Below the pieces are notes generated by a model. It had not been told where the DNA came from, made no database searches, and worked only from the letters and a program-made list of their open reading frames with translations. Of a stretch of 20,000 nucleotides of DNA, positions 1 through 13,658 are shown piece by piece (within the stretch, counting starts at the first letter, position 1; the number at the start of each line of letters is the position of its first letter). The stretch is taken from the IMG/VR virus record IMGVR_UViG_3300043543_000740. The stretch is one strand, 5' to 3'. This DNA is from an uncultured virus (IMG/VR IMGVR_UViG_3300043543_000740) (lineage: Duplodnaviria > Heunggongvirae > Uroviricota > Caudoviricetes). Made by a program: the position numbers and the translations under genes.

Positions 1-19
1 GGCACAAACGGAGCGCAAG

Positions 20-247
20 GTGACGGACGCGGCCGCGGCGATGCTGGTCGGCCGGCGGGTGGTGCGGGTCGGGTACATGCCGGCCGCGGAGGCGGCGGAC
101 CTGGGGTGGTCGCACCGGCCGGCCGTGCTGGAGTTCGACGACGGGACCGTCGCCTACGCCGCCTGCGACGAGGAGGGGAACGACGCGGGCGTGCTGTTCG
201 TGGAGGCGGGGCGAGGCGACCTCTGCCTCGGGCGGTTCCCGACCTGA
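20..247 (+). CDS. Small hypothetical phage/ICE protein (75 aa; true start may differ)
   Basis: ORF with GC-rich third codon positions, GGAG upstream, and a stop immediately followed by a hammerhead ribozyme, as for the next gene. Confidence 0.65.
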   Translation: MTDAAAAMLVGRRVVRVGYMPAAEAADLGWSHRPAVLEFDDGTVAYAACDEEGNDAGVLFVEAGRGDLCLGRFPT

Positions 248-311
248 GCCGAAACGCGGGACGTCCCGCGTCGCCCGGCCGTGGCGGGCCGGGCCTGATG
301 ACGGCAGCCAC
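248..311 (+). ncRNA. Type II hammerhead ribozyme with pseudoknot (copy 1), predicted cleavage after C272
   Basis: GCC-GAAA-C[GCGGG acgt CCCGC]G-UC-[GCCCGGCC gtggcg GGCCGGGC]-CUGAUGA-c-GGC-a-GCCAC. All core nucleotides are present, and loop I GTGGC pairs with 3' GCCAC. Confidence 0.9.
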
Positions 312-332
312 CGAACCCCGAGGAGCGGAACG

Positions 333-560
333 ATGAACCCGCCGAAGCCGGTGACGATCGAGTTGGAGGTGACCGAGTTCCCCACCGCCCGCGAGGCGAT
401 CGAGCACGCCCGCGCGCACGGCGGCCGGGCGATCCGGCTGGGCGGCCGGAGCCTGGTGGTCCGCGACCAGGACGCGGAGTGGTTGGCGACCGCCCGGGTG
501 GAGTTCGCGTACCTGTGCGACCACCACGGGCAGATCGTGACGGTCCCGGTCAACGATTGA
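333..560 (+). CDS. Small hypothetical protein (75 aa)
   Basis: ORF with AGGAG RBS upstream and coding-like codon usage, flanked by two hammerheads. Confidence 0.8.
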
Positions 561-561
561 A

Positions 562-621
562 GCCGAAACGCCCCCGCGGGCGTCGCGGCGGGTGGCTCCC
601 GCCGCCTGATGATGGCAGCCA
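562..621 (+). ncRNA. Type II hammerhead ribozyme with pseudoknot (copy 2), predicted cleavage after C584
   Basis: GCC-GAAA-C[GCCC ccgc GGGC]G-UC-[GCGGCGGG tggct CCCGCCGC]-CUGAUGA-t-GGC-AGCCA. Stems covary with copy 1, and loop TGGCT pairs with AGCCA. Confidence 0.9.
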
Positions 622-646
622 ACCCCATCGACCCGGAGCGACGACC

Positions 647-1075
647 ATGACCGCGAAGAAGACCACGAAGAGTTCCCCCGCCCCGAAGAAGGCCACCGGG
701 GGCAAGAAGCCGAAGGCCGCCAAGAACGCGACGCCCGCCGTCGAGGAGCCCGCGAAGACCCCGGAGGCGACCACCCCGCCGGCCGAGGCCGCGGATGCCA
801 AGCCCGCCAAGACCAGGAAGGCCCGCGCCGAGAAGCCGAAGAAGATGAGCGCCCTCGACGCCGCCGCCAAGGTCCTCGGCGAGGCGGGCAGCGCGATGAA
901 CGCCAAGGAGATGATCGAGGCGATGGCGAGCAAGGGGTACTGGACGACCCCCGGCGGGAAGACCCCGCACGCGACCCTCTACGCCGCCATCCTGCGCGAG
1001 ATCACCGCCAAGGGGAAGGAGGCCCGGTTCGCCAAGACGGAGCGTGGCAAGTTCGCCCTCAACGGGGAGGCCTGA
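647..1075 (+). CDS. HARE-HTH (HB1/ASXL/restriction endonuclease) winged-helix protein with Lys/Ala/Pro-rich N-terminal tail (142 aa), outer element
   Basis: Start MTAKKTTK after GGAG; C-terminal [10 protein letters not shown]...[33 protein letters not shown]...RF.K..RGKF pattern. Confidence 0.85.
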
Positions 1076-1083
1076 CCCCGGAC

Positions 1084-1194
1084 GCCGCCCGTTCGCCCAC
1101 GAGGCCCCCACGCGGGGCCTCTTCCCGCTTGCCGTCGTTCCGTTCAACGTGCGCCCTCCGACGCGACGTGGGCCGACGTGGGCGAACGGGCGGC
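1084..1194. repeat. Perfect 18-bp inverted repeat enclosing a hairpin, between convergent genes
   Basis: GCCGCCCGTTCGCCCACG (1084-1101) / CGTGGGCGAACGGGCGGC (1177-1194). Confidence 0.8.
1101..1121. terminator. GC-rich hairpin, possible (bidirectional) terminator
   Basis: GAGGCCCC-cacgc-GGGGCCTC between convergent stops at 1075 and 1144; only a weak U-tract. Confidence 0.45.
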
Positions 1195-1515
1195 CTCCGG
1201 GGCGAGGAACCGGACCGGCTTGCCCAGCGCGCGGGCCATCGCGATCTCCTCCCGCACCCCGATGCTCTCCCGCCACCCGTCGAGCATCAGCACCGCGACC
1301 TCGTCGCACCGCTCCAGGTGGACCCGGTCGATGCGTTCCCAATACGACCATGCGGTCGGCAACTCGAACTCGATGAGCGAGTGGCTGTGGACGATCGGCG
1401 AGAACACGACCTCGCCGGCGCGGAGCAGCGCGGCGGTCGCCCGGCAGGCGGCGCGGAACCGCTCTTCGCGGACCGCGGGGTCGGGATGCGAGTATGGACT
1501 GGCGAGGTAGATCAC
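1144..1515 (-). CDS. DUF1937 family protein (nucleoside 2-deoxyribosyltransferase-like fold), 123 aa
   Basis: IYLASPYSH...VFSPIVHSH...W.RID...L.RCD...L.LDGW.ES.GV.EEI motif; GTG start overlaps the methyltransferase stop (GTGA). Confidence 0.85.
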   Translation of the reverse strand: MIYLASPYSHPDPAVREERFRAACRATAALLRAGEVVFSPIVHSHSLIEFELPTAWSYWERIDRVHLERCDEVAVLMLDGWRESIGVREEIAMARALGKPVRFLAPEAARSPTSAHVASEGAR

Positions 1516-1875
1516 GCGGACACCTCCGCGCCGGTCCGCTCGGCCTTGCGGCCGGTGAACTTCTCCCACCGCTGGACGATGACGTCGCAGTACAGCGGGT
1601 CCAACTCCATCAGGTACGCCTTCCGTCCGGTCTGCTCGGCGGCGATGAGCGTGCTGCCGGAGCCGCCGAACAAGTCGAGAACATGCTCACCCTCGCGGGA
1701 CGAGTACTGCATCGCCCGCACGGCCAACTCGACCGGCTTCTCGGTGAGATGCACCATCGACTGCGGGTTGACCTTCTTCACGCTCCACACGTCCGTGGCG
1801 TTGTTCGGCCCGAGGTAGACGTGCGCCGCGCCCTCGCGCCAGCCGTAGAAGCACCACTCGTGGTTGCCCATGAAG
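1512..1875 (-). CDS. C-terminal half of the interrupted ParB-DNA methyltransferase. It is in frame with the serine recombinase ORF and has a possible independent start ATG at 1871
   Basis: FMGNHEWCFYGW...HLTEKPVEL...VLDLFGGSGSTLIAAE.TGR..YLMELDP.YCDVI (motif I SAM-binding and downstream motifs of beta-class N4/N6 MTases). Confidence 0.92.
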
Positions 1876-3623
1876 TCCCCTCCGGGTAGCCGTGTGGAGC
1901 CATCGGCGAACGCACGCTCCAGGCCCGCGTGTAGGTAGACTGTGCCCGTCTTGTCGTCGGGGTTGACCTCGATCTTCTCGACGAACGCGGCGAGCATCTG
2001 CCGGTCCGCGAGGTCGATGTCCGTCCGCGTCGCCAGGGCGTCGAGTTTGGCGAACTGCTCCATCGCCCAGGCCCGCAGATCGGCCTCGGTGATGATCGGT
2101 GTGGCAGGTTCATCGGTGGGCTTCAAGCGGGCCTCCAGCACGTCGCGCTTGGCCTTCAGGTCGGCCAGGGTGGTCCGCAGTTCGTCCAGACCGTCGAACG
2201 TCGGGTCGGCCAGCATCGACACGGTCGCCTTGATCTTGCGGTTCAGCAGGTCGAGCTCGCGCTCGTCGCCCCGCGTCGGCTTGGCCTTCGCTCGCGGGGC
2301 CAGCACCGCTTTGACGAACGCATCGACCGCCTTCTCGACCGTGGCGTGGTCGCCCAGCAGCACCTTCCGCACAGCATCCAGCACGAACCGGTCGAGGGCC
2401 GGGCCGGGGACGTTCACCACCCGGCAGACCGTCTTGCCGTAGCGGTGGTAGCCCGAGCAGGCGTAGACGCGATAGCCCTCGCCGGTCGGGCCGGGCCAGC
2501 GGCGGTCGCGGATCGTGGTGAACGGGTTGCCACACCGCTTGCACACCAGCAGGCCAGCCAGCAGGGTGCGTTTGGTCGGCCGGGCGTTGCCGTGCTCGGC
2601 CCGCCGCTTGGCCACGGCCCGCTGGGCGGCCGCCCAGGTATCCTTGCTGACCAACGCCTCGTGAACGTCCTCGCTGATGATCCAGTCGGCCTCGGTGTTG
2701 CGCTGCCACATCTTCTTCCGCTTCGGCTTCAGCACGCCCTGGCCGTCGAGGCCGAACAGGCTGCCCATCGTGTGGCGGTTCCAGACGACCGCCCCGCGAT
2801 AGACCGGGTTGCGGATCAGCTTGGCGATGCGGGCCGTGTTCCACTTCTGCCCGCCGGGCGACGGGATGCCCTCGGCGTTGAACGTCTGCGCGATGTGGTG
2901 GAAGCCGTAGCCCTGCACGCACAGGTCGAACATCCGCTTCACCACCGCTACCCGCTCGGGCAGGCTCGGGACGTAGCGGATGATGTCGCTCTTGGCCTTC
3001 TTCAGGTTGACGCCCACCGGGACCACTCGCAGCAGTCGGCCATCCGGCCCGAACTCCTGCTTACTACCGTCGGGCATCCACCGCAGCGTGCGGAGCAGTT
3101 GCCCGTCGCCGGTCAAGTGCTGCTTGTCGTAGCCGTACGGGGCCATGCCGCCGGGCGCGGACTTGCGTTCGCGGATGTTCGAGATCTGGCCCCGGATGCT
3201 GTCGCGGGCGAGCTTGACCGAGTACTGGCGGGCCTGCCAGGATTTGACGCCCTGGATCAGTTCGCCCTCGTCGCCCTCGGGGATGCCGTCGGCAGTGAAG
3301 ACCACGCCGACGCCGGCCAGGTGCAGGCGGTGCAGGTAGAAGCCGGTCTCGTTGGTGCCGCCCCGCGAGAAGCGGGAGATGTCGTAGCACAGCACCGCCT
3401 CGAAGTCGCGGCCGTTCTCGGCGGCCTTCATCATCTGCTCGAAGGCGTCGCGGCCGCGGGCACTGGTGCCGGACACCGCGTCGTCGATGTACCAGCGCAG
3501 CACGCGGTAGCCGTGCTCGGCCGCCCAGCGTTCGACGGCGGCCTGCTGGTCGGGGATCGAGCGTTCCTGCATGTCGGTGCTGCGGCGCGCGTAGCCGACG
3601 GCCGGGATCAAGGTCTTGGTCAT
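1512..3623 (-). CDS. Large serine recombinase (integrase). In the integrated state it reads through the att site into the 120-aa MTase C-terminus (703 aa total)
   Basis: AVGYARRST catalytic motif, YDISRFSR, APYGY, IRNPVYRG, HEALVS, zinc ribbon LLAGLLVCKRCG...YAC...C and coiled coil; GGAG RBS before ATG 3623. Confidence 0.95.
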   Translation of the reverse strand: MTKTLIPAVGYARRSTDMQERSIPDQQAAVERWAAEHGYRVLRWYIDDAVSGTSARGRDAFEQMMKAAENGRDFEAVLCYDISRFSRGGTNETGFYLHRLHLAGVGVVFTADGIPEGDEGELIQGVKSWQARQYSVKLARDSIRGQISNIRERKSAPGGMAPYGYDKQHLTGDGQLLRTLRWMPDGSKQEFGPDGRLLRVVPVGVNLKKAKSDIIRYVPSLPERVAVVKRMFDLCVQGYGFHHIAQTFNAEGIPSPGGQKWNTARIAKLIRNPVYRGAVVWNRHTMGSLFGLDGQGVLKPKRKKMWQRNTEADWIISEDVHEALVSKDTWAAAQRAVAKRRAEHGNARPTKRTLLAGLLVCKRCGNPFTTIRDRRWPGPTGEGYRVYACSGYHRYGKTVCRVVNVPGPALDRFVLDAVRKVLLGDHATVEKAVDAFVKAVLAPRAKAKPTRGDERELDLLNRKIKATVSMLADPTFDGLDELRTTLADLKAKRDVLEARLKPTDEPATPIITEADLRAWAMEQFAKLDALATRTDIDLADRQMLAAFVEKIEVNPDDKTGTVYLHAGLERAFADGSTRLPGGDFMGNHEWCFYGWREGAAHVYLGPNNATDVWSVKKVNPQSMVHLTEKPVELAVRAMQYSSREGEHVLDLFGGSGSTLIAAEQTGRKAYLMELDPLYCDVIVQRWEKFTGRKAERTGAEVSA
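1876..1898. other. att junction at the integrase end (crossover TC/GA 1876-1877; attP arm 1884-1898)
   Basis: GGGTAGCCGTGTGGA (1884-1898) is the exact reverse complement of TCCACACGGCTACCC (12471-12485); each arm is 6 nt from the shared dinucleotide. Confidence 0.92.
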
Positions 3624-3648
3624 GGGTTCGTCTCCGGGTTGCGCACCG

Positions 3649-3670
3649 ACGCCCCGCATGGGCGGGGCGT
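3649..3670. promoter_or_regulatory. Hairpin between the HARE-HTH and integrase genes (possible attenuator/terminator)
   Basis: ACGCCCCGC-atgg-GCGGGGCGT, perfect 9-bp stem, no U-tract. Confidence 0.45.
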
Positions 3671-3689
3671 GGCGGCGGGTTGTTTGGAA

Positions 3690-3989
3690 TCAGGCCAGCG
3701 TGAACCGGCCGCGGGCGACCTTGTGGAACTTGGCATCCTTGCCCTTGGCCCGGATCTGTCGCAGTAGGGAGGCGTACAGGGTCGCGGCCGGGGTCTTGCC
3801 CGCCGGGCTGCTCCAGAGCCCCTTGGCCATCATCGCCTCGACCATCTCACCGCAGGTCATCGGCTCGCCGGCGTCGGCCAGGACGCGCTCGGCGGCGGCG
3901 ATCTGGCTCAGCTTCTCGGCCGGGGCCGGTTGCGGTTCAGGCTTCTTCTTCGGGGCTGCCTTCTTCTTCGTGGTCGTCTTCGTCGCCAT
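3690..3989 (-). CDS. HARE-HTH winged-helix protein of the inner element (99 aa), homologous to 647..1075
   Basis: LSQIAAAERVLADAGEPMTCGEMVEAMMAKGLWSSPAGKTPAATLYASLLRQI...KF.K..RGRF; GGAG RBS. Confidence 0.88.
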   Translation of the reverse strand: MATKTTTKKKAAPKKKPEPQPAPAEKLSQIAAAERVLADAGEPMTCGEMVEAMMAKGLWSSPAGKTPAATLYASLLRQIRAKGKDAKFHKVARGRFTLA

Positions 3990-4320
3990 CGTGGTTCTCC
4001 CGCATCGGGTCGTCGTGGTCGCGGGGCGACGATCCCTCCGCGTCAGGACAGTCAGTTACAAGCCGGTTCGCCCCGGTTCCAGCGACTTCCGGCCCGATTC
4101 CGGGAGATTCTTCCGGGGCCAGCAGGTGCTTCCGACCCGCCCGGATGTCGGCCTCGAGTTGTTTGAAGAACCGCCACTCCCACAACGGCACCAGCACCAC
4201 GTCCGCCTTGCCGTAGCGGGTGATGACGACCGGCTCGTCGGTGCGGGCGACGTGCAGGCAGACCATGCCCAGCCCGTCGCGCAGCAGCGACACCGCCATC
4301 TTGTGCTCGGTCGGCTTCAT
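3937..4320 (-). CDS. Phd/YefM antitoxin-like DNA-binding protein (no adjacent toxin seen)
   Basis: ...SLLRDGL...VARTDEPVVITRYGKADVVLVP.WEW matches the Phd/YefM pattern; AAGGA RBS; the C-terminal tail is poorly supported and overlaps the next gene. Confidence 0.7.
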   Translation of the reverse strand: MKPTEHKMAVSLLRDGLGMVCLHVARTDEPVVITRYGKADVVLVPLWEWRFFKQLEADIRAGRKHLLAPEESPGIGPEVAGTGANRLVTDCPDAEGSSPRDHDDPMRENHDGDEDDHEEEGSPEEEA

Positions 4321-4405
4321 GGTTCCTTTCCGGGTTTGGCTCCCCGCGATGAGGTCGGGCGGAACAGGCACGGGGAACAAGACACACATCTTGTGACCAA
4401 CAAAA

Positions 4406-4498
4406 TCCGGACCTGTACAAGAAGGAAACTGTGCTTACCCCGGTCGGTGTTCCGCGTGCCAATTTTTCTTTTCGATCCGGCCGGGAAGGAACCATTGG
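4406..4498 (-). promoter_or_regulatory. Putative packaging (cos/pac-like) signal of the inner element
   Basis: Minus strand CCAAT-GGTTCCT-T-CCCGGCCG-N24-GGAACA-N14-CACAGTTT...GTCCGGA; same blocks and N24/N14 spacing as 13659-13746. Confidence 0.6.
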
Positions 4499-4556
4499 CC
4501 AGTTGTTGCGTGTGCAACACCTGATCCATTTGAATCACCCGGTCCGGCGGGTTGTC

Positions 4557-4746
4557 TTCCACACGGCTACCCCGCGACCTCTCATCGTGCCGCGCGTGCT
4601 TGTGCGCGCTTCCTATACCCGCCCCCCGGGGTGCGTTCACGCACCCACGGGGGGTATAAGGGGGGTGCGCGCACACACACACAGACACCCGAGGCGGGTC
4701 AGCAAGACGCCGGGAGGAAGTTTCCACACGGCTACCCCGCGACCTC
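4557..4746. repeat. Two 25-bp direct repeats containing the attP arm, flanking a nested palindrome (putative origin of replication)
   Basis: TTCCACACGGCTACCCCGCGACCTC at 4557-4581 and 4722-4746. Nested inverted repeats: TGTGCGCGC/GCGCGCACA (4601-4609/4667-4675), TATACCC/GGGTATA (4614-4620/4652-4658), GGGTGCG-ttca-CGCACCC (4629-4646). Confidence 0.85.
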
Positions 4747-4759
4747 ATGAACGCGGTCA

Positions 4760-6349
4760 TCACTCATCCTCCGGCTGGGGTCGCGTGGCGAACTGGACCG
4801 GCTGGTTGGCTCCGAACTTCCAGCGGTGGACGAGCCCGGCGGCCTCGGCCTGCTTGAGCAGCTTCTTGGCCAGCGGTTCGGGCACATCCGCCTCCGTGGC
4901 CCGGTGGACGATGCGCGCCGTCATGGCGGGCGTCTTGGTCACGAACGCCGCCACGAACGAAGGGACGGTCCACTCCGGCTTCGACGGCTTGGCCGGCTCG
5001 GGCTGCGGGGTCGGCTTCGGCTTGCGGCGGAGCTTCTCGGACTTGAGGTCGGACGGGTCGAGCGCGTCCTCGACGGTCCAGACCGGGAACGACCAGCGCA
5101 GACACCTGGGTTCGATCGGCGGCCACGAGCGGACGGCGGCGTCGAGGACGGCCACTCCGGGCTCCTCGTGCGGACGCAGGACGAGGTGCGTGTCCGCCGC
5201 ACGCGACTGCGCCCCGGCCCCCGCGCCGACATCCGTGACCGCCTTGCCCGACTGGTTCCCCTTGGTGCTGTGGTGGATCAGCACGAACGCGCACTGCAAC
5301 TTCGCGGCATAGGCGTCCAGCACGTTGTACACCTGGGCCATCGTGCCGTTGTCGTTCTCGTCCGTGTCCCTCGGCATCGCCCGGTAGAAGGCGTCGATCA
5401 CGACTAGCTTGTACCTGCCCGGCTCGATCCGGCTGAAGCACGGCCCCAGGCCGAAGATGTCTTTCAGCTTGCCACGCAGGTTCACGATGTCGATGCGGTC
5501 GCCGCACTCGGCGAGCGTGATGCCGCGGGCCTCCATGACCTTCGGGATGCGGCCGGCCGACGTTTCCTTGTGCAACTCGTTGTCGATGAGCAGCACCCGG
5601 CCCTGTTCGCACGGGAACAGATCGAGCCACGGGCGGCCGGTCGCCACGGCCAGGGCGAGGTCGCTCACCAGCCAGGACTTGCCGACCTTGGGCGAAGCGA
5701 TGACGTTCAGCGTCTCGCCTTCGCGGAGCAGCCCATGCACGACCGGCGGTCGCAGGTGCGGATACCGCATGACGAGTTCGCGGAGCGACTGGATGGGAAA
5801 CTCGTCCGGCTCCGACTTGGCGGGTGTCGGCACCGGCTTGGTCCCGGTGCGAAGCCACTCCAAGTTGCCGGGCTTCTTGGTGAGCGGTGCCGGCTCGGGT
5901 TCCGGCGGTTCGTCCCAATCGTCGTCGGGACGGGGTGGTTCGGTGGGTTGGTCGAAGTCGATCGGCTCGGCCGCCCAGCGTTCGACTCGAGTGAGCCAGC
6001 GTTCCAGTTCCACGCCGAAGTCGCGCTCCTCGGCATCGGGGTTGAACCACGCCTGCTCGACGAACGCCAGCGCGTGATGCCGACCGCGCAGTTGAGCCGC
6101 CAGAACCTCGTGGCCCGGCGTGTACCACTCCGCGCCGTCACGCTCGACCCGCGCGTTCTCCCGGGCGATCTGCCGCTGCTCCTCGACGAACTGGATCACC
6201 TCGATGTCCGGCCGGAGCCACTGCGACGCCTCGCGGGCACCGAGGAGAAATCCCTCCCGATAGGCATGCTCGGCCTGCTCCCGATGCGGATGGCCCTCGG
6301 GCAGCACGGAATCGCCGTAGTAGGGCACCATTTCAGTTGCGTTCGACAC
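4760..6349 (-). CDS. AAA_25/RepA-like (SF4-type) replicative helicase with unknown N-terminal region and probable C-terminal winged helix (529 aa)
   Basis: Walker A ASPKVGKS, VLLIDNE, Walker B LVVIDA, LIHHSTK, GAGAQSRAAD; GTG start at 6349 with GGAGGT RBS. Confidence 0.88.
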   Translation of the reverse strand: MSNATEMVPYYGDSVLPEGHPHREQAEHAYREGFLLGAREASQWLRPDIEVIQFVEEQRQIARENARVERDGAEWYTPGHEVLAAQLRGRHHALAFVEQAWFNPDAEERDFGVELERWLTRVERWAAEPIDFDQPTEPPRPDDDWDEPPEPEPAPLTKKPGNLEWLRTGTKPVPTPAKSEPDEFPIQSLRELVMRYPHLRPPVVHGLLREGETLNVIASPKVGKSWLVSDLALAVATGRPWLDLFPCEQGRVLLIDNELHKETSAGRIPKVMEARGITLAECGDRIDIVNLRGKLKDIFGLGPCFSRIEPGRYKLVVIDAFYRAMPRDTDENDNGTMAQVYNVLDAYAAKLQCAFVLIHHSTKGNQSGKAVTDVGAGAGAQSRAADTHLVLRPHEEPGVAVLDAAVRSWPPIEPRCLRWSFPVWTVEDALDPSDLKSEKLRRKPKPTPQPEPAKPSKPEWTVPSFVAAFVTKTPAMTARIVHRATEADVPEPLAKKLLKQAEAAGLVHRWKFGANQPVQFATRPQPEDE

Positions 6350-6503
6350 GTTGCACCTCCTCCCGGCCGCGGAGCCACTGGGCCAGGAGCCATGCCGCCA
6401 ACGCCTCGGCGCGCCGCTCGACGCGGGCCTGGGCCTCGGGCGCGGGGTCGCTGAACGCCACGGTGAACGTGAACGAGCCGATCTGCGGGTTGGTGTCGGA
6501 CAT
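6333..6503 (-). CDS. Small hypothetical protein, 56 aa (MSDTNPQIGSFTFTVAFSDPAPEAQARVERRAEALAAWLLAQWLRGREEVQRVERN); absent from the ORF track
   Basis: AGGAG RBS, coding-like codon usage, stop overlaps the helicase start region. Confidence 0.65.
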   Translation of the reverse strand: MSDTNPQIGSFTFTVAFSDPAPEAQARVERRAEALAAWLLAQWLRGREEVQRVERN

Positions 6504-6637
6504 GGCCCCTCTCCTGTGCCGGTCCTGCCGAGGCAGGGATGAACCCCACGGCGGGGTTCGGCGACGGCTTGCCGGGTCGGCAAGTCGCGTTCGCCAGAGG
6601 CGAAGAGGGTCGGTCGATAGGTTGTGTCAGTGGGCTG

Positions 6638-8479
6638 TCAGTTCTCCCCTTTGGCCTTGTACGCGGCCCGGTGGTCGGCCAGCGCGGCCCCGTAGTCGAA
6701 GTAGACCCGCCAGGACACGGCCAGCTTATTCGGCTCCGCATCCATGCCGAAGAACTCGACGTTCGGCGACTGAACACCTTGCAGGAAGGCGACGATCAGC
6801 GGGGTGTCGGCCGGCCCGGCGAACAGGTACCACGCCTTCGCCGAGGTGCCGCTGAACCGCCCCGCGTTCGACAGTCGCGGCTCCACTTCCAGCGTCACGG
6901 CGTTCTTGAGGGCGTTGCCGGTGGGCACGTCGTTGTTGGCCCGCTGCAGAAAGTCGCTCATGAGCAACTCCTTGGCGGTCTGCTGCAACTCCGGCGGCAC
7001 CAGCAGCACGCGCGGCCGGATGTCCAGATCGCGGCCCTCGCCGTCGCGCTGGCTCATCATCTTGGCGATGCCCGCCCCCAGCGACGCGCTGGACAACGCC
7101 GTGGCCGTCCCGGTGTCGTAGTTGGCGTGGCCGCCGCTGAAGAAGTTCCCGGCGTTGGCCAGCAGCACCTGGTACACGAGGTCGCTCAAGGACCGCATCG
7201 CCGCCCGGCCGAGGTTCCGGGCCGTCTCGTCGAACAACGATAAATCGTCGTTCACAACATCCCTGCGGTCGATGCTGAGCATCTTGGCGAAGGTGTCGAT
7301 GCGGAACGGGTAGGTCATCTCCTTGATGGAGCCGTGCTTGATCTCGCCGCCGGGGGCCAGCTGGGTGAGGTCCCCCACGTCACTACCCCGCACCCCGGTG
7401 TGCGGCTTGAAGTCCGTCGCCGACTTGATGCCCGCGAACGACCGCCACGTCGCCGGCGTCTCGGTGTAGGCGTCCATCAGCAGCTTGTTGGCCGCGTCAC
7501 CCAACGCCACCGGCAGTGAGTAGGTGGACAGCGCGGCGCGGATCAGGGCGTCCCGGCTGCTGGGAATGTCCCGGCCGTCGAGTTGCAACGCCGCCCGGCA
7601 CAGGTCGATCAGGTTCGTGGCCCGGAGGTCGCGGGCCTGCTGGGCTGCCGTGGCCCCGAGGTGCCGTTCGGCGAGGTGTTCGTAGCCCATGTGGCTCAGC
7701 ACCGCCGCCTCCAGCGTCTGTCGGGTCGTGGTGAACGTCCGGCTGTGGATCGTCGTCACCTGCGGCCGGCTGGCACGCAGGACTTCGAGCCGCGTGCGGC
7801 GGACATCCCAGCCTTCCACGATGGCGCGGGCCTCGATGTCGCCGAACTGCCCGCCGCACGCGGTGCGGATGGCGTGGACCCGCTCCGTCTCGGCCAGGGC
7901 CGCCGCTCGGATGTCATCGGCCGTCTGCGTCTCGTTCATGGTGCTCTCCTTCCCTTGGGCCGCGATGGCGACCGACGTGTTCGCATCGGCCCCGATGGCG
8001 ACGATGCTCACCTCCCGCAGCACGCCGGCCTTGACCAGCGTGAACCCACTCCGTCCGGCGGTGATCGCCCGGCCGTTCACCTGCACGGATTCGCCGCCAC
8101 GAACCCGCTCGTAATCGGTAGGCATCACGCCGACCGATGCTTGGAACTTGAACCCGCCCCGAGCGAGTTCAACCACCTGCCGGGCCGCCTCGGTCACGCC
8201 GGTAAGCGTGCCGTGGACGAGCAGCTTGCCGTCGATCACCTGCGCGCGGCCGTGCCCGACGATGCCGTCGAGTGTGGCGTCGTGGTCCGCCAAGAGGCTG
8301 ATCTGCTCGGCTCCGGCATCAAGCCCCGCGAGGTCGATGGCAACCGGCCCCCAGCCCGGCACCGTCATCAGCCCGCCCGTGTACGCCACGATGGAAACGC
8401 TCGGCGGTTTGCCGGACGCGGCTTGAATCTCGACCTCGGCGGATGACAGCAGGATTTCTTGAGACGCAGTGGAACGCAT
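6638..8479 (-). CDS. Prohead protease-major capsid protein fusion (HK97 fold, Mu gpT-like), 613 aa
   Basis: N-terminal protease motifs LLADHD..IVG, FQASVG, LREVSIVAIGAD; capsid motifs ANKLLMDAY....TW, DFK, GGEIKHG, TFAKMLSIDRRDVVNDDL, PRVLLVPPEL, AWYL, V.FDYGA..DHR. Confidence 0.88.
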   Translation of the reverse strand: MRSTASQEILLSSAEVEIQAASGKPPSVSIVAYTGGLMTVPGWGPVAIDLAGLDAGAEQISLLADHDATLDGIVGHGRAQVIDGKLLVHGTLTGVTEAARQVVELARGGFKFQASVGVMPTDYERVRGGESVQVNGRAITAGRSGFTLVKAGVLREVSIVAIGADANTSVAIAAQGKESTMNETQTADDIRAAALAETERVHAIRTACGGQFGDIEARAIVEGWDVRRTRLEVLRASRPQVTTIHSRTFTTTRQTLEAAVLSHMGYEHLAERHLGATAAQQARDLRATNLIDLCRAALQLDGRDIPSSRDALIRAALSTYSLPVALGDAANKLLMDAYTETPATWRSFAGIKSATDFKPHTGVRGSDVGDLTQLAPGGEIKHGSIKEMTYPFRIDTFAKMLSIDRRDVVNDDLSLFDETARNLGRAAMRSLSDLVYQVLLANAGNFFSGGHANYDTGTATALSSASLGAGIAKMMSQRDGEGRDLDIRPRVLLVPPELQQTAKELLMSDFLQRANNDVPTGNALKNAVTLEVEPRLSNAGRFSGTSAKAWYLFAGPADTPLIVAFLQGVQSPNVEFFGMDAEPNKLAVSWRVYFDYGAALADHRAAYKAKGEN

Positions 8480-8673
8480 GAGGTGACCGACCTCCCCGGA
8501 ACGACGGAACGGAAGCAACCGGTCGGGCACGGTGCCCGCCGGTCGAGGGGTGGTTGGATGGGTGGGTCGTTGGGTTGGGTCGGTCGGTCGATGGGTTCGT
8601 TCGGGTCGTCAGGGTGGGAAGGTTTGCTCCCGGTCCTTGGCCGTCATGGCGCGACCGTTCCCCGACTGGAAGA

Positions 8674-8702
8674 ATTGTAGCGGATGTACACCTTGACGAC
8701 AA
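8674..8702 (-). promoter_or_regulatory. Sigma70-like promoter for the capsid-helicase operon
   Basis: Minus strand TTGTCG-N17-TACAAT in the AT-richer divergent intergenic region. Confidence 0.6.
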
Positions 8703-8770
8703 GCCCGGGAGATGATTTTCTTTCGTATAACAATGTTCTCATCGAGAAAGGCATCCCGAGAGTACTTGCC

Positions 8771-11700
8771 ATGCGTCGTTCCCTATCGTCCTGGGCCAAG
8801 AGCATCTTCCCGACCGCCCCGACTCGGCCGATCCGTAAGCCTCGTTCCTTGACCCTGGAACAGTTGGAAACGCGCGACTGCCCGACCGTCCTGCCGCCGG
8901 GCGGCCCCGAACCGCAGCCGCCCGGCCCCGGCTTCCCGCCGGTAGCCAACCCGGACCACTTCGCCTTCGCTCCCGACGCGCCGATCCGCATCAGCGTCGC
9001 CGACCTGCTGGCCAACGACACGGCCGCGCCCGGCGTGCCGCTGACGGTCGAACTGCTCGATAGCCCCGCCGGCGGGCAACTCGACCTGATCGACGTGGGC
9101 CTGTGGGAGTACACGCCCGGCACCGGTTTCAGCGGCAGCGACGCTTTCAGCTACCGCCTCTTCGACGGCACCGATTACAGCCTGCCCGCCCTCGTGACCT
9201 TCGAGCAGCAGCCCACCCCGCCAAGCACACCAGCCACACCCACCGTCACCGACGTGACCGAGGCGTGGCTGACCGGCTTCGAGGATGAGGCCCTCGGCAG
9301 TGTCACCGTCGCGGTGTTCGAGACGGCCGAGGCGGACGTGCTCGACTGGACCGCCAGCATCGACTGGGGCGACGGCACCACAACCACCGGGCAGATCGTG
9401 GCCGACGGCGACGGCCGGTTTCGCGTCGTGGGCGAACACACCTACGACGCGTGGGGCCTGTACCTCGTGCAGGTCACGCTGACCGACACGGTCGAGGAGA
9501 CGCACGACCTCTACAACCTGGCGAGCATCCAGTTCCGCAACTACACTTACACGTTTACCGACCCGATCGGCAACAGCACGCAGTTCGTCTTCGCCGAGGG
9601 CTGGCAACTCACGCAGGAGATCGACCCGCTCGGGAATTCGACCTTCTACAGCTACACCACCGACGGCCTGCTCGCCAGCCGCACCGACCGGCTGGGCCGG
9701 GCCATCACCTTCGACTACGGCACCGACGGCGTGCTCCTGAGCCAGACGTGGCTGGCCGCCGACCTGACCACCGTGGTGGACACGCTGTCGTTCAGCTACA
9801 CCAGCGACGGCCTTTTGCTCAGTGCGAGCAACGGCGTCGGGGCGTACACATTCAGTTGGGCCGACGGGGTGCTGACCGGCGTGACCAACCCGTTCGGGGT
9901 GACGCTGACGTTCGGCTACGACACCGACGGCCGACGGACCTCGGTGGCCGACTCGTTCGGCGGGCTGATCACCTCGACCTACACCGACGGCCTGCTCAGC
10001 AGCCGGACGCTCGTGGCCGGGGCGTTGAACCTGCGGGTCGATCTGGGCTACGACGCCGACGGGGTGCCGACCCAGATCAGCCGGTTCGCCGGGCCGCTGC
10101 AGGAGTTGGTGTCGCAGACGGAGTACGCCTTCGCGCAGGGCTTGCTCGCCTCGATCACGCATCGCGGCGCGGGCGGGGTGATCCTCGACCAGTTCCTCTA
10201 CCAGTTCGACGAGGACGGCTTCCTCTCGCAGATCACCTCCGACTTCGTGGGCGAGACCGACTACGCCTACGACGCCGACGGGCAGTTGACCGGCGAATCG
10301 TCAATCTTGGTGTCCAGCACGTTCAGCTACGACGCCAACGGGAACCGGGTGGGCGGCGGGTACGTCGTCGGGCCGGGCAACCGCCTGCTGGCCGACGGCA
10401 CGTGGAGCTACAGCTACGACGCCGAGGGGAACCTCGTCGGCAAGACGCACCTCGTGACCGGCGATAGTTGGACCTACAGCTACGACCACCGCAACCAGAT
10501 GACCCTGGCCGAGAAGCGTGACGCGAGCGGGTCGGTGGTGCTCTACGCAGTCTACAAGTACGACGTGTTCGGCAACCGCATCGAGAAGGCGGTGGACTGG
10601 GACGGTGATGGACCAAACACGCCAGTCATGACGCGGTACGTGCTTGACGGCTGGAACAACATGAAGCCGACGCCGGTCGGCAACGAGCACTTCGACGTGT
10701 ACGCCGAGTTGGACGGCACGAATCAGTTGATCGCCCGGTATCTGCACGGCGACGAGTTCGACCAGACGTTCGCGCGGGTGTTGGTGGACGGCAGCACGCC
10801 CGAGGTCCACTGGCTGTTGGCCGACCACCTGAACTCGGTGCGTTTGGTGCTGGACGAGAGCGGCGCGGTACTCGACCAGATCGCCTATGATGCCTTCGGC
10901 AATATCGTGGCGCAGCTGAACCCGCTGCTCGTTAACCCGATCCTGTTCGCCTCGCGCGAGTTCGACGCCGAGACGGGCCTCTACTACAACCGCGCCCGCT
11001 ACCTCGACCCCACCACCGGCTGCTGGACCACGCAAGACCCGCTCGGCTTCGCCGCCGGCGACGCCAACCTCTATCGCTACCTGAACAACAGCCCGACCCT
11101 TGCCACCGACCCGAGTGGCTTGATCTGGTATCCGGGGAAGTATCTGTACCAGATGTACAGCGAATACCGACGGGGTCAGGAACTGGATCGCCAGATTAAC
11201 CAGCATCGTGCCACGCAAAACTTACCGCCACTCCCGCCGCCGCCTCACTGGGCACGAGTGGCTGTCACGGAGTTTGGTGATGGTCTGCGGATCGGGTTTC
11301 AAGCCAACGTGAATGCGGTAGCGACGGCCGGACGTTCGTTGGTCACCTTGGGTATCTGGGCCGAGCCGTGGGAAGTGTGGGCAGTGGATGACGTCGATCG
11401 GCCGTTCTACGAGGATGGGTTTTTGGCTGCACGCTTCGGCTGGGAGTTGCTGCCGACGGCGGGGATTGGCAAGCTGACGCAAGTGCCGGGTCAGATGGGT
11501 CGCTGGGGCCGGTACGCTCTGTACTGGGACGCTGGCCAGAATGTTGTCCAGGTCGGTCGGGGTGGTTATGATATCTACGAAAACGGCCTGACCTGGACGA
11601 ATGGCCTGCAAGTCGGCGGCCTGCTCGGACTGGGCGGCAACTACACCACTTGGCGGAGGCTGCCGAGTGTAGCTCCAGCAGGTAAGGGGGGAAGAGGGGA

Positions 11701-11980
11701 CATCATGCGGATGGCCCCGTCTGATGCCCCTCGGTCTGCCGCCGAGGCCGCCTTGCGACGGGAAGCAGAATTGCGACAGCGAATCCTGGCAGATCGTCTT
11801 GCTGAGTTAGGTCACGGTGAGGGTGGTGCTGTCGGAAAGGGAGCGACCCGCCTTCCTCCTGAAGCAGCGAATGATCCCACGGCCCGAGGTATGTGGGAAG
11901 AGTTGCAAAGGATTCGTCGCCAGATTGCTGACCTTCGCCGTAACCCGCCTTCTGGCCCCCGTGAAATGCTGGAACCTTGA
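8771..11980 (+). CDS. Rhs/YD-repeat polymorphic toxin with planctomycete export motif, Ig/cadherin-like domains, short Rhs cage and an unknown ~285-aa C-terminal domain (1069 aa)
   Basis: LTLEQLETRDCP; PVANPD..LLAND..YTP..F.G.D.F.Y; IDWGDG...HTY; YD repeats; Rhs core GLYYNRARYLDP..G.W...DPLG...NLYRY..NSP....DPSGL. Confidence 0.92.
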   Translation: MRRSLSSWAKSIFPTAPTRPIRKPRSLTLEQLETRDCPTVLPPGGPEPQPPGPGFPPVANPDHFAFAPDAPIRISVADLLANDTAAPGVPLTVELLDSPAGGQLDLIDVGLWEYTPGTGFSGSDAFSYRLFDGTDYSLPALVTFEQQPTPPSTPATPTVTDVTEAWLTGFEDEALGSVTVAVFETAEADVLDWTASIDWGDGTTTTGQIVADGDGRFRVVGEHTYDAWGLYLVQVTLTDTVEETHDLYNLASIQFRNYTYTFTDPIGNSTQFVFAEGWQLTQEIDPLGNSTFYSYTTDGLLASRTDRLGRAITFDYGTDGVLLSQTWLAADLTTVVDTLSFSYTSDGLLLSASNGVGAYTFSWADGVLTGVTNPFGVTLTFGYDTDGRRTSVADSFGGLITSTYTDGLLSSRTLVAGALNLRVDLGYDADGVPTQISRFAGPLQELVSQTEYAFAQGLLASITHRGAGGVILDQFLYQFDEDGFLSQITSDFVGETDYAYDADGQLTGESSILVSSTFSYDANGNRVGGGYVVGPGNRLLADGTWSYSYDAEGNLVGKTHLVTGDSWTYSYDHRNQMTLAEKRDASGSVVLYAVYKYDVFGNRIEKAVDWDGDGPNTPVMTRYVLDGWNNMKPTPVGNEHFDVYAELDGTNQLIARYLHGDEFDQTFARVLVDGSTPEVHWLLADHLNSVRLVLDESGAVLDQIAYDAFGNIVAQLNPLLVNPILFASREFDAETGLYYNRARYLDPTTGCWTTQDPLGFAAGDANLYRYLNNSPTLATDPSGLIWYPGKYLYQMYSEYRRGQELDRQINQHRATQNLPPLPPPPHWARVAVTEFGDGLRIGFQANVNAVATAGRSLVTLGIWAEPWEVWAVDDVDRPFYEDGFLAARFGWELLPTAGIGKLTQVPGQMGRWGRYALYWDAGQNVVQVGRGGYDIYENGLTWTNGLQVGGLLGLGGNYTTWRRLPSVAPAGKGGRGDIMRMAPSDAPRSAAEAALRREAELRQRILADRLAELGHGEGGAVGKGATRLPPEAANDPTARGMWEELQRIRRQIADLRRNPPSGPREMLEP

Positions 11981-11988
11981 GGAAGATC

Positions 11989-12321
11989 ATGATGGAAAGA
12001 AAGAACGGTCGAATCGTCGGCGGCTCTTTCGATGAGCTTGTGGCGATGCTATCTTCGTCCAATCACTTCGACCGGGCTGAGGCGGCCAGGCTGCTCGTCA
12101 ACATGCGGAAGGAGGCCATCAAGGCATTACCCGCACTTCTGGCTCTGCACAATGACCCCTGTGATCTGGTTCGCATTCAAGTACCCCGTGCGATTATTCA
12201 CATGGAAGCTCGCCCTGATGAGGCTGCTGAGGTTCTACGCTGCCTTTTGAATGACAAGAACAAGATCGTCAGGCTGTATGCTGAAGAAGCGCAGCAGTTT
12301 CTCACCCAGCGAACGTCATAG
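11989..12321 (+). CDS. HEAT-repeat protein, probable Rhs immunity protein (110 aa)
   Basis: Directly follows the toxin; RAEAARLL / ALPALLALHNDP.DLVR / LLND.NKIVR..A HEAT-like repeats; lower GC. Confidence 0.75.
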   Translation: MMERKNGRIVGGSFDELVAMLSSSNHFDRAEAARLLVNMRKEAIKALPALLALHNDPCDLVRIQVPRAIIHMEARPDEAAEVLRCLLNDKNKIVRLYAEEAQQFLTQRTS

Positions 12322-12427
12322 CTCTTTGTGTGCTGCTCGTCCCGAAGTACGCCGCCGCCTTTTCACCCCCCGGAGTCCCAATCAAGAACACAGGCCGGGG
12401 TAGCTACCAGCCTAGCCTGAAAAATGT

Positions 12428-13438
12428 TCACATCCACACGTTTCCCCGTTCCCACTCGAACCCGACCCGTTCCACACGGCTACCCCGTGAATCCTTGCGG
12501 GTGAGCACCGGGTGCTCCTTCACCCAGATGATCGCCTGCGAAAAGTACAACTCGCAGGCCTTCAGCACCGGCGGGTAGTTGGCGCAGTTGGCGTAGCCGC
12601 CCCAGATGTAGAAGCCGCGGCCGGGCTCCAGCACGCGGGCGAGGTTCCCGAACCACGCGGCCAAGAGCCGGTCGAACTCGGCGTCGGAGACGAAGTCGTT
12701 GGCGAGCGGCCGGTCCTTGGCGCGGAGCTTCTTCCCCGTCGGTTTGGCCTTCTCGGGGTGGCGCTCGACGTCGAGCTTCTGGTGGTGGGTGGTGCCGGCG
12801 AACGAGGAGAGGCCGGCGGCGATGGCGTTGTTGGAACGCGGCTCGACCTTCACGTTGTACGGCGGGTCGGTGTTCACCAGGTGGATGCCCGCGCCGCCGA
12901 GCAACCGGTCCACGTCCGCCGGCTTGCTGCTGTCGCCGCACAGGAGGCGGTGGTCGCCCAGCACCCACAGGTCGCCCGGTTTGGTCGTCGCCTCGTCCGG
13001 CGGTTCGGGCACCTCGTCCGGGTCGGTCAACCCGTCCTTCAGGGTCGGGTCGAGCAGCTTCGCCAGCTCGTCCGCGTCGAAGCCGAGGAGCGCGAGGTCG
13101 TAGTTGGCCTCCTTCAGCCCGGCCAGTTCGATCGGGAGCAGGTCGTAGTCCCACGTCGCCAGCGACGCCGTCTGGTTGTCGGCGATCCGGTAGGCGCGGA
13201 TCTGCTCGGGGGTCAGGTCCGTGGCGACGTGGACCGGCACCTTCTCCAGGCCCAGCTTCAGTGCCGCCTTGTAGCGCGTGTGGCCGACGACGATGACGCC
13301 CTCGGCATCGACGACGATCGGCTGGCGGAACCCGAACTCGCGGAGCGACGCCGCGACCGCATCGACCGCGTCGGCGTTATCCCGCGGGTTGCCGGGGTAC
13401 GGCTTCACGTCGGTGATCTTCCAGAGTTCGATCTTCAC
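12428..13438 (-). CDS. N-terminal part of the ParB-N + DNA (N4-C/N6-A, beta class) methyltransferase, truncated by the element and ending in a 20-aa element-derived tail
   Basis: PYPGNPR..N, FGFRQPIVVD, GHTR..AA, YRIADN (ParB-like); W.LG.HRLLCGDS; TDPPYNV (motif IV); IIWVKE...TRKD; GTG start at 13438 with GGAGG RBS. Confidence 0.93.
   Translation of the reverse strand: MKIELWKITDVKPYPGNPRDNADAVDAVAASLREFGFRQPIVVDAEGVIVVGHTRYKAALKLGLEKVPVHVATDLTPEQIRAYRIADNQTASLATWDYDLLPIELAGLKEANYDLALLGFDADELAKLLDPTLKDGLTDPDEVPEPPDEATTKPGDLWVLGDHRLLCGDSSKPADVDRLLGGAGIHLVNTDPPYNVKVEPRSNNAIAAGLSSFAGTTHHQKLDVERHPEKAKPTGKKLRAKDRPLANDFVSDAEFDRLLAAWFGNLARVLEPGRGFYIWGGYANCANYPPVLKACELYFSQAIIWVKEHPVLTRKDSRGSRVERVGFEWERGNVWM
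12471..12493. other. att junction at the Rhs end (attP arm 12471-12485; crossover TC/GA 12492-12493)
   Basis: TCCACACGGCTACCC-CGTGAA-TC-CTTGCGGGTGAG; methyltransferase homology stops exactly here. Confidence 0.92.
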
Positions 13439-13658
13439 AGGTCGTCCCTCCAGGTTTCGCCGTGGTACAGCTCGATGGCGGTCAGCTCGTGGGCAGGTCG
13501 CCTCTCGACTCCGAACGGCTCGGTCGGCACGGGGCGGGCGCGGCGCGTCCCGGCCTCGCTGAGCTAGGCCGGGCGGCCGACGCATCGAAGGCAATAGGGG
13601 CCGTGCGGCGTGTCCCGACCGCACCCCTCACATCAGCGCATGGAGCACCTCTCCGAAG

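Follow-up and report, generated by a model that had tools for sequence, protein, structure and literature searches.

What becomes of an integrase gene whose own attachment site lies inside its coding sequence, and which protein does such a gene encode in the integrated and in the circular state? The question is raised by the 20,000-nucleotide stretch of DNA analyzed here (the window), from an uncultured virus of the Caudoviricetes (IMG/VR record IMGVR_UViG_3300043543_000740), in which a small element carrying a gene, int, for a large serine recombinase (LSR) interrupts a phage gene for a methyltransferase with a ParB-like domain. A reading made from the letters alone (below, the sequence-only reading) had placed the phage attachment site, attP, inside int and proposed that integration exchanges the C-termini of integrase and methyltransferase in frame. 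The comparisons below bear this out: the crossover dinucleotide GA occupies positions 1 and 2 of an Asp codon in both genes, and the exchange of 3' ends is therefore in frame. They also indicate that the short tail that the integrase would lose on integration is selected as a peptide.

The integrase gene and the site of crossover

The int open reading frame (ORF; 1512-3659, minus strand) encodes 715 amino acids (aa) from its first ATG and 703 from Met13, the start backed by the family consensus. It has no stop before the crossover and runs in frame into 120 methyltransferase codons, and Pfam finds Resolvase (residues 20-157), Recombinase (234-352) and Zn_ribbon_recom (366-431) domains in it, then N6_N4_Mtase at 620-695. 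The Resolvase match (E 3.5e-24) confirms a resolvase-type catalytic domain, and R13, R14, S15 and D17 are invariant among 33 integrase sequences; the recombinase and zinc-ribbon domains also match, and the coiled coil inserted in them appears as long helices at 407-530 in an AlphaFold2 (AF2) model of the relative P0018 (below). Pfam found serine recombinase domains only, and nothing that would indicate tyrosine recombinase chemistry. The sequence-only reading had noted the lack of a stop, which the ORF, Pfam and the attachment-site alignment confirm, and had given lengths of 703 aa for the integrated protein ending in a 120-aa methyltransferase half and 603 aa for the circle form, which are correct when counted from Met13; the circle form predicted from the junctions is 583 + 20 = 603 aa. 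No close relative of the integrase was found in phage records, where, among the matches listed, those spanning most of the protein are 22-26% identical. The G+C content of the window is 62-73%, and real genes were picked out by their third-position G+C.

The GA dinucleotides at 1876-1877 and 12492-12493 bound a 10,616-bp element inserted within the phage ParB-methyltransferase gene. The empty site is present in another virus record, G002, which has 43% of the window's sampled words in common and carries a single open 498-aa methyltransferase, 97-98% identical to both halves. In the window the N-terminal half is the ORF at 12428-13624 (minus strand), which contains ParB_N and positions 1-91 of the 221 of the methyltransferase profile (its PHROG 498 match starts at residue 55) and then a 20-aa tail, SRGSRVERVGFEWERGNVWM. 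The C-terminal half, now joined to int, matches positions 139-220 of 221 of Pfam N6_N4_Mtase and is 98% identical to the intact G002 gene. The tail is unrelated to methyltransferases, and the same tail would end the integrase on the circle; the sequence-only reading had recognized it correctly and set it at 12428-12491, and the corrected positions are 12431-12490 for the tail and 12428-12430 for the stop.

The point of exchange was located by a three-way DNA alignment of the empty site (attB) with the two junctions (attL and attR). attL equals attB as far as ...AAGGA and attR equals attB from GGAC... on; the exchange thus falls inside the common GGA, and the element is therefore 10,616 bp long. 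attP and attB have these 3 bases in common and no more. The GA of the GGA is also the center of symmetry of the element-side sequences: the 15-mer TCCACACGGCTACCC lies 6 bases from it on either side, in inverted orientation (1884-1898 on the minus and 12471-12485 on the plus strand), and has 4 matches in the window versus 0.07 expected. As is typical of serine integrases, this attP is short, with inverted half-sites, a central 2-bp crossover and little identity to attB. Metagenome contigs from two other runs, X3 and X5, join 1875 to 12492 and skip exactly 10,616 bases (3 bases at the joint being ambiguous); the shorter sides of these joins are 22 bases (X3) and 40 bases (X5), matched at 90% likeness, so they are weak alone and serve as support.

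Read-through and the tail peptide in relatives

The sequence-only reading had asked whether homologues keep the read-through, and they do. A search with integrase residues 13-603 found 201 proteins, 120 of which were examined by cutting each at the position aligned to the crossover; 6 are fragments or frameshifted far upstream and were set aside, and none of the 114 that have the C-terminal region stops before the crossover. The read-through is also seen in relative loci from GTDB genomes (80 loci), IMG/VR (17) and metagenomes (80), with one possible exception, L135, in whose clade the crossover was placed by extrapolation only, and it extends to relatives down to ~48% identity. In these relatives, as here, the crossover lies inside the int ORF and int receives a new 3' end on integration. 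In all, about 260 relatives, from Planctomycetota and their phages, show the read-through; the few listed homologues that carry a source name are from Planctomycetota. Two database entries of ~706 aa contain a methyltransferase domain and go by the names "recombinase family protein" or "hypothetical protein".

The 264 pooled items fall into 78 tail classes, the largest being methyltransferase site 1 with 52 items, a clade of Phycisphaerae whose tail is short and conserved (46), a distant clade with the tail x-R-G-x-x-K-x-K-G-E-A (34), the terminase large subunit (22), a clade with a conserved tail of 69-74 aa (10) and the near clade, whose tails are like the window's (8). At attL the window-type tail closes the N-terminal fragment of a methyltransferase in four relatives (L086, L108, L123 and L124) and of a terminase in two (L087 and L089). 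In a distant subclade closely related integrases share their DNA to ...CACGG and then diverge: what follows is the conserved tail, a short unrelated end, or the gene of a methyltransferase or an SU10 capsid protein; there too, therefore, the tail lies beyond the crossover.

The circle junction that the sequence-only reading had predicted for the window has a natural counterpart in a relative. Junctions of the attP type (P/P'), with inverted arms in which 14-17 of 23 positions pair, occur in L011, L104, L113 and L115, and the first 35 bases of the window's tail cassette are identical to the P' side of L115. L112 contains an integrated element with the methyltransferase N-half to its left, and L111 has the same int (100% over 2,699 bases) continuing into the methyltransferase C-half. 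L113 bases 1-10237 equal L112 bases 1078-11314 at 99.98%, and bases 10234-10448 equal L112 bases 762-976 at 100%, so that the 215 bases past the L113 crossover are the sequence just inside the L112 attL. L113 holds a circle or concatemer junction, and one relative thus occurs in both DNA states; its integrase ends in a 21-aa tail of the window type.

Other junctions are less regular. L104 was considered as a free attP circle and rejected: a B/P' junction stands 11.1 kb upstream of its P/P' junction and the contig does not wrap around, which indicates a tandem or hybrid array. At that B/P' junction (L104:1-330) the tail continues, in frame, a 25-aa fragment resembling a twin-arginine signal peptide; past the P/P' junction (11319), 11.1 kb farther on, come 3.6 kb of different DNA. 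A tandem of two related elements, or recombination of attP with an attL, may account for it. L112 and L111 carry the same element up to the crossover and differ in their right flanks, unrelated sequence in one and the methyltransferase C-half in the other, which could reflect a rearranged host phage, secondary recombination or a chimeric assembly.

Is the fusion frame itself conserved by selection? Nine junction types, among ~65 tail classes that are not attP, are in frame and have a Pfam match past the crossover: methyltransferase site 1, a second methyltransferase site ~20 codons downstream of it, the GpA terminase (two sites, one of them V-V-I-D / D-P-Q-T-D-E-S), Terminase_6C, SU10 capsid, Sel1, GH2 and DUF899. 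Four junctions are not in frame at the DNA level, L010, L012 and L016 facing a gene on the opposite strand and L007 a co-oriented gene in another frame. About 50 further tail classes are unclassified, and many of them end within 35 codons; Pfam searches of 34 tails or proteins found no family past the crossover in 25, a result uninformative either way for those 25. The chance value to be compared is neither the 1 in 3 of the sequence-only reading nor 1 in 6: GA falls on positions 1-2 of a sense codon in 544 of 1,904 placements on either strand of the window ORFs, a composition-aware expectation of 0.286. Nine of 22-30 types would already be unremarkable against this value, and nine of ~65 certainly are, so the partner and the frame look incidental. 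At a single site two conserved Asp codons determine the frame and descent preserves it; the 52 and the 22 items thus do not count as independent tests. The count of in-frame junctions was accordingly dropped as evidence of selection, which leaves the idea that the frame is a selected feature unsupported; we infer that fusion partner and reading frame are probably a by-product of where the GA lies, in an Asp codon of GC-rich coding sequence.

The tail behaves differently. Codon alignments were made of 10 near-clade tails and of the last 10 codons of 8 distinct distant-clade sequences. The proportions of synonymous (pS) and nonsynonymous (pN) differences are 0.49 and 0.20 in the near clade (ratio 0.41, n=10) and 0.68 and 0.17 in the distant clade (ratio 0.24, n=8), and pN/pS is 0.43 for near-clade codons 9-17, which lie past the 15-nt arm. 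Comparison segments in the int body gave 0.74-0.97, with two near-clade rows misaligned by two residues. Several near-clade residues are fixed or nearly so while their codons vary (Gly17 is encoded by GGA, GGG, GGC and GGT), and in the distant clade R, G, K, G and E are invariant with 2-3 codons each. Diversity at codon positions 1/2/3 is 0.22/0.25/0.46 past the arm in the near clade and 0.15/0.17/0.58 in the distant clade, where it rises to 0.68-0.78 at all three phases past the stop; third-position diversity in the tails is thus 2-4 times that of positions 1-2. Homology between elements on the P' side stops about 47-57 bases past the crossover. An inverted-repeat search of the distant-clade tails gave no clear symmetric site (at best 10-13 of 24, at scattered centers), and an ssrA-like LAA end was not found on the near-clade tails. 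Judged by these alignments, the tail is under purifying selection at the amino-acid level, third positions being freer, so that the circle-form integrase carries a selected C-terminal peptide, which integration removes. Conservation of the tail lends new support to two isoforms that matter.

What the exchanged C-terminus may do

The comparisons above demonstrate how the gene is laid out, that 3' ends are exchanged, that this is conserved in the family, that both DNA states occur in nature and that the tail is selected; do the two forms of the enzyme also behave differently? Recombination between the GA of attP, in an Asp codon 20 codons ahead of the circle-form stop, and the GA of the target Asp codon swaps the 3' ends, the integrase giving up its 20-aa tail for 120 aa of methyltransferase and the truncated methyltransferase gaining the tail together with its stop codon. 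In the proposed mechanism the protein that the circle encodes, tail included, would be the complete enzyme, and the integrated copy would give a tail-less chimera of different activity or stability, as reported for the myxophage Mx8; the identity of what replaces the tail would be irrelevant. The tail could tune the control surface formed by the coiled coil and the recombination directionality factor (RDF), and excision would probably still need an RDF, encoded by one of the element's small genes or supplied by the host phage. That tailed enzyme and tail-less chimera differ in activity or stability, with excision still dependent on an RDF, is in our judgment evenly poised between true and false.

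The structural comparison gives this proposal a place on the protein. The AF2 model of P0018, a relative with a natural tail, was built from a 39-row alignment (mean predicted local distance difference test score, pLDDT, 80), and solved LSR structures (SPbeta, Bxb1, LI and phiC31) match it at Z 14-17. The aligned ranges end at model residues 565-586, and the crossover is at residue 583; the LI integrase alignment ends at residue 569, and phiC31 residues 590-592 align with residue 586. Residues past 586 are covered by no row of the fold search, and residues 577-586, which the P arm and core encode, have a pLDDT below 50. Since the aligned fold ends near the crossover, the tail is an appended extra peptide. 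In phiC31, D590-592 at the extreme C-terminus are among the acidic patches at the ZD-RDF interface (bioRxiv 10.1101/2025.05.02.651858, Extended Data Fig. 5). By analogy an influence of the tail, which leaves the protein near this contact position, on the control surface is plausible; it is just as conceivable that the enzyme tolerates a foreign domain at its C-terminus.

Several points weigh against two functionally distinct isoforms. The pN/pS ratios come from 8-10 related sequences and are uncorrected p-distances that ignore phylogeny, and the tail overlaps the P' arm, so that part of its conservation is a DNA-binding constraint. Its extreme C-terminus is variable in the near clade, which counts against a simple terminal degron. 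In the P0018 model the predicted strands of the tail (589-597 and 600-602) have a pLDDT of 60-70, a moderate confidence only, and the integrated isoform is predicted to retain the whole aligned LSR fold. C-terminal fusions of the phiC31 and SPbeta integrases to RDFs are used as working proteins in three reports (bioRxiv 10.1101/2025.05.02.651858; PMC11722253; PMC5737554), so a swapped C-terminus need not change activity. Finally, the circle junction of the window's own element was not among the 15 joints listed, of 102, in contigs of four sequencing runs. RNA runs were absent from the list of runs that contain the element, whose samples come from hot springs.

Much of this would also be expected if attP overlaps the 3' end of int simply for compactness, with a tail that has no role, isoforms that behave alike and a conventional RDF of the element or the host phage that sets direction, an explanation that we consider possible though somewhat unlikely. 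It draws on the aligned folds that end near the crossover, on the linker at 577-586 that is predicted to be disordered, on the tolerated phiC31 and SPbeta fusions, on in-frame junctions at chance level across sites and on PLE, the satellite island of Vibrio cholerae, whose excision is mediated directly by its target phage (PMC6002521); conservation of the tail it would attribute to the integrase-binding P' half-site. It is on this last point that it fits poorly: amino acids are fixed and third positions vary also at codons 9-17, past the 15-nt arm, and the distant clade repeats the pattern with no inverted-repeat site visible over its tail. Sparing of third positions makes the pattern unlike a DNA-binding constraint.

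It is quite improbable that selection acts instead on the fused fragment, the chimera interfering with the enzyme of the host phage or the fragment stabilizing or localizing the integrase. The two fullest junction classes, methyltransferase site 1 (52) and terminase (22), are in frame, as are the nine types with a Pfam match, but the frame at one site is inherited and the items are not independent, GA stands at positions 1-2 of sense codons in 0.286 of its placements in the window ORFs, the nine types belong to a total of ~65 classes, the target gene runs on the opposite strand in three cases (L010, L012, L016) and, co-oriented, in another frame in one (L007), and the fused domains are mutually unrelated. 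More improbable still is a role of the tail on the target fragment at attL, where it would supply a quick stop, and perhaps a destabilizing end, that renders the partial enzyme harmless. The same tail and stop do close the methyltransferase or terminase N-fragments of six relatives and the signal-peptide-like fragment of L104, and a weak terminator-like site lies past the stop; this would work at in-frame sites only, however, and lineages whose junctions are of other kinds conserve the tail as well; its C-terminal residues, moreover, vary in the near clade. A more ambitious version of the two-isoform proposal is clearly unlikely: direction would be written in the state of the DNA, the circle-only tail licensing integration or blocking excision, and loss of the tail would yield an excision-competent form that needs no separate RDF and is expressed when the host phage transcribes the interrupted gene, making the element a self-switching hyperparasite of phage genomes.

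The sequence-only reading had also remarked that no RDF is evident. To our knowledge the RDFs of serine integrases share no family. As stated, the remark stands but carries little weight, given that two small conserved genes adjoin int and that PLE excision is mediated by the helper phage.

How does the two-isoform proposal compare with known systems? The Int of Mx8 (IntP) is a tyrosine recombinase. So are the SSV1-type archaeal integrases, in which attP lies in int, integration splits the body of the enzyme and the targets are tRNA genes; they resemble the present element in having attP inside int and differ in that the gene body is split there and a tail is swapped here. The BPs-type mycobacteriophages have tyrosine integrases too, but their attP is in the gene for the repressor. 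Immunity there depends on integration, and a degradation tag is mentioned in reports on it; as here, the C-terminus of a phage protein is altered by integration, and thereby its behavior, whereas here attP is in int, no repressor is involved and the tail has no ssrA-like end. In Mx8 attP lies within int, the recombinant gene formed on integration has another 3' end, and its product reportedly keeps its activity while its specificity is changed (PMC6070905). The likeness is attP in the int coding sequence with a new int 3' end on integration; the differences are that the present enzyme is an LSR with a short tail beyond its structure-aligned part and a target in a phage gene, the Mx8 target being chromosomal. 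An attP in int with a changed C-terminus is thus already known, and is here extended to the serine-integrase class. The canonical integrases of phiC31, Bxb1, SPbeta and LI/A118 have separate RDFs; as a class, large serine integrases recombine attP with attB unaided and attL with attR only when an RDF is present. With them the present one shares the same domain set and fold, a short inverted-arm attP and a 2-bp crossover; it differs from these canonical enzymes in that the ORF crosses attP family-wide and has a conserved post-crossover peptide. In full-text literature searches, subscription journals lying outside them, we found no published serine integrase whose ORF runs through its own attP crossover.

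The element, its targets and what the exchange would mean

The features of the window are collected in Table 1. The gene order capsid, primase/helicase, (Phd-like), HARE-HTH, integrase is the same in most of the 37 relatives tabulated by tblastn, the HARE-HTH protein is present at 56-83% identity in all but 3 of these loci, and elements whose attL was located are 10.2-11.0 kb long. Neither portal nor terminase was matched by Pfam or PHROG in the scanned ORFs of the 10.6-kb element. Like satellites, therefore, it is small and has an integrase, replication genes and an incomplete virion set; by its gene content the family is a coherent group of small, capsid-encoding, satellite-like elements, and insertion in phage genes suggests that they may be induced, packaged and spread by a helper phage.

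Table 1. Features of the window (positions count from its first nucleotide)
Feature	Position	Strand	Remarks
Methyltransferase C-half	1512..1874	-	120 codons + stop; FGGSGST S-adenosylmethionine (SAM)-binding motif; now the 3' end of the integrase ORF
Integrase body	1875..3623	-	583 codons, Met13 to crossover Asp codon; complete large serine recombinase; PHROG 95 integrase, E 3e-96
Crossover GA, attR	1876..1877	-	Positions 1-2 of Asp codon GAC; three-way alignment; midpoint of inverted 15-mers
P arm of attP, TCCACACGGCTACCC	1884..1898	-	Encodes integrase S-T-R-L-P; exact 15-mer; arm kept in relatives
HARE-HTH protein, 99 aa	3690..3989	-	Adjoins int; Pfam HARE-HTH E 1e-14; possible regulator or RDF
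Phd/YefM-like small protein, 150 aa	3937..4389	-	Pfam PhdYeFM_antitox E 2e-5, under the curated cut-off; in many relatives
Att-arm internal copy 1	4557..4581	+	In 25-nt perfect repeat; P' orientation; upstream of the Phd-like/HARE-HTH/int string
Att-arm internal copy 2	4722..4746	+	A GC-rich palindrome lies between it and copy 1, 165 bp away
AAA_25 primase/helicase-like replication protein	4760..6583	-	Pfam AAA_25 E 2e-29; PHROG 2597 DNA primase
Prohead protease-major capsid protein fusion, 630 aa	6638..8530	-	Pfam Phage_capsid_4 E 2e-41; PHROG 4523 "major head and protease protein" E 2e-78
Variable cargo	8684..12321	+	RHS-repeat protein 8684-11980, HEAT-repeat protein 11977-12321
Terminator-like hairpin + T-rich run	12391..12414	-	Just past the tail stop; weak hint only
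Tail cassette SRGSRVERVGFEWERGNVWM	12428..12490	-	20 codons + TGA; int 3' end on the circle, now closes the methyltransferase N-half
P' arm of attP	12471..12485	+	Same 15-mer TCCACACGGCTACCC, inverted
Crossover GA, attL	12492..12493	-	Positions 1-2 of Asp codon GAT; three-way alignment
ParB-like domain + methyltransferase N-half	12494..13438	-	DPPY motif; host phage gene; likely start GTG ~13438

The two perfect 25-nt direct repeats that contain the att arm sit between the primase/helicase gene and the Phd-like/HARE-HTH/int string, and pairs of arm copies occur at matching distances in L006, L018, L070 and L104 (2.6-3.1 kb from the crossover and 150-165 bp apart); the integrase may bind them to regulate its own gene, or they may belong to an origin. 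For the terminator-like site, 1 was found versus 0.4 expected in shuffled sequences, and the RNA fold of the region is ordinary (z = 0.99). The cargo consists of a 1,098-aa RHS-repeat protein with Big_9/cadherin-like domains and a 114-aa HEAT-repeat neighbor and looks like a polymorphic toxin with its immunity partner. No full-length match to this pair was found by tblastn in the 37 tabulated relatives, just two short RHS fragments; relatives have other cargo in the slot.

The flanks of the element are a phage replication module (a Sak4-like annealing protein, a DUF669 single-strand binding protein, RusA, a helicase, a primase-polymerase and the ParB-methyltransferase), and the target phage is a Planctomycetota phage. 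HARE-HTH proteins are encoded both by the element and by the host phage flank, the latter at 479-1075 on the plus strand, convergent to the methyltransferase gene. G002 has an extra serine recombinase ORF of 532 aa (L003; G002:C1:11713-12252), 25% identical, which is probably the host phage's own integrase. In some host phages (P0012 / L077:7747-8910; L129; L180) an intein in the methyltransferase begins 8 codons past the attB crossover, with H-E-W-C before and C-F-Y-G-W after it and a weak Pfam Intein_splicing match; two kinds of selfish element thus appear to use one conserved methyltransferase motif.

Other lineages enter other genes. A sister lineage (L087, L089, P0036 and 20 others; integrase ~60-64% identical, same tail) targets the terminase large-subunit gene at V-V-I-D / D-P-Q-T-D-E-S, probably the Walker-B region, and gives chimeras of ~1,045 aa, many of them on IMG/VR virus contigs. 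Distant integrases (L092/P0059, L076 and L069; 51-56% identical) are fused in frame to phage genes, namely at the second methyltransferase site ~20 codons downstream, to the C-terminal 67 aa of a major capsid protein of the SU10 type and at another GpA terminase site, and the integrase family seems specialized in phage genes. The Phycisphaerae clade (L040-L082, L161-L182; ~50% identical) has the conserved short continuation ...S-S-x-H-S-[CW]-x-V ... S-P-R, which may be either a tail of the attP type or a conserved target of the host, and lies on long contigs, one titled chromosome; tRNA or tmRNA genes as targets of short conserved tails were found in 0 of 11 loci, this clade included.

We know of no reported fusion of a recombinase ORF to its target among gene-interrupting elements that serine recombinases excise, such as skin. 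The skin element in sigK resembles the present one in interrupting an ORF that is whole in DNA without the element, and differs in that the interrupted gene there is a developmental gene of the host; PMC5025042 covers the skin of C. difficile. PLE has an LSR, and its excision is mediated directly by the target phage (PMC6002521). With PLE and with capsid-forming phage-inducible chromosomal islands (PICI) the element shares small size, an integrase and a replication gene, and it has a capsid gene of its own and no full virion set; it differs in that the family enters phage genes (methyltransferase, terminase, capsid) and not the bacterial chromosome.

If the two-isoform proposal is true, the kind of regulation described for Mx8, in which an integrase is controlled through recombination within its gene, would reach the large serine integrases, whose one-way behavior underlies their use in genome engineering, and the swapped tail would leave the protein where phiC31 touches its RDF. 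For integrase mining the exchange of 3' ends means that proteins annotated from integrated copies of this element family are chimeras, and that the integration-competent enzyme is readable only from the circle or by joining attR and attL. The carriers are 10-11-kb capsid-encoding elements in conserved motifs of the methyltransferase, the probable terminase Walker-B region and a phage capsid gene, which suggests that the family are parasites of phage genomes in Planctomycetota.

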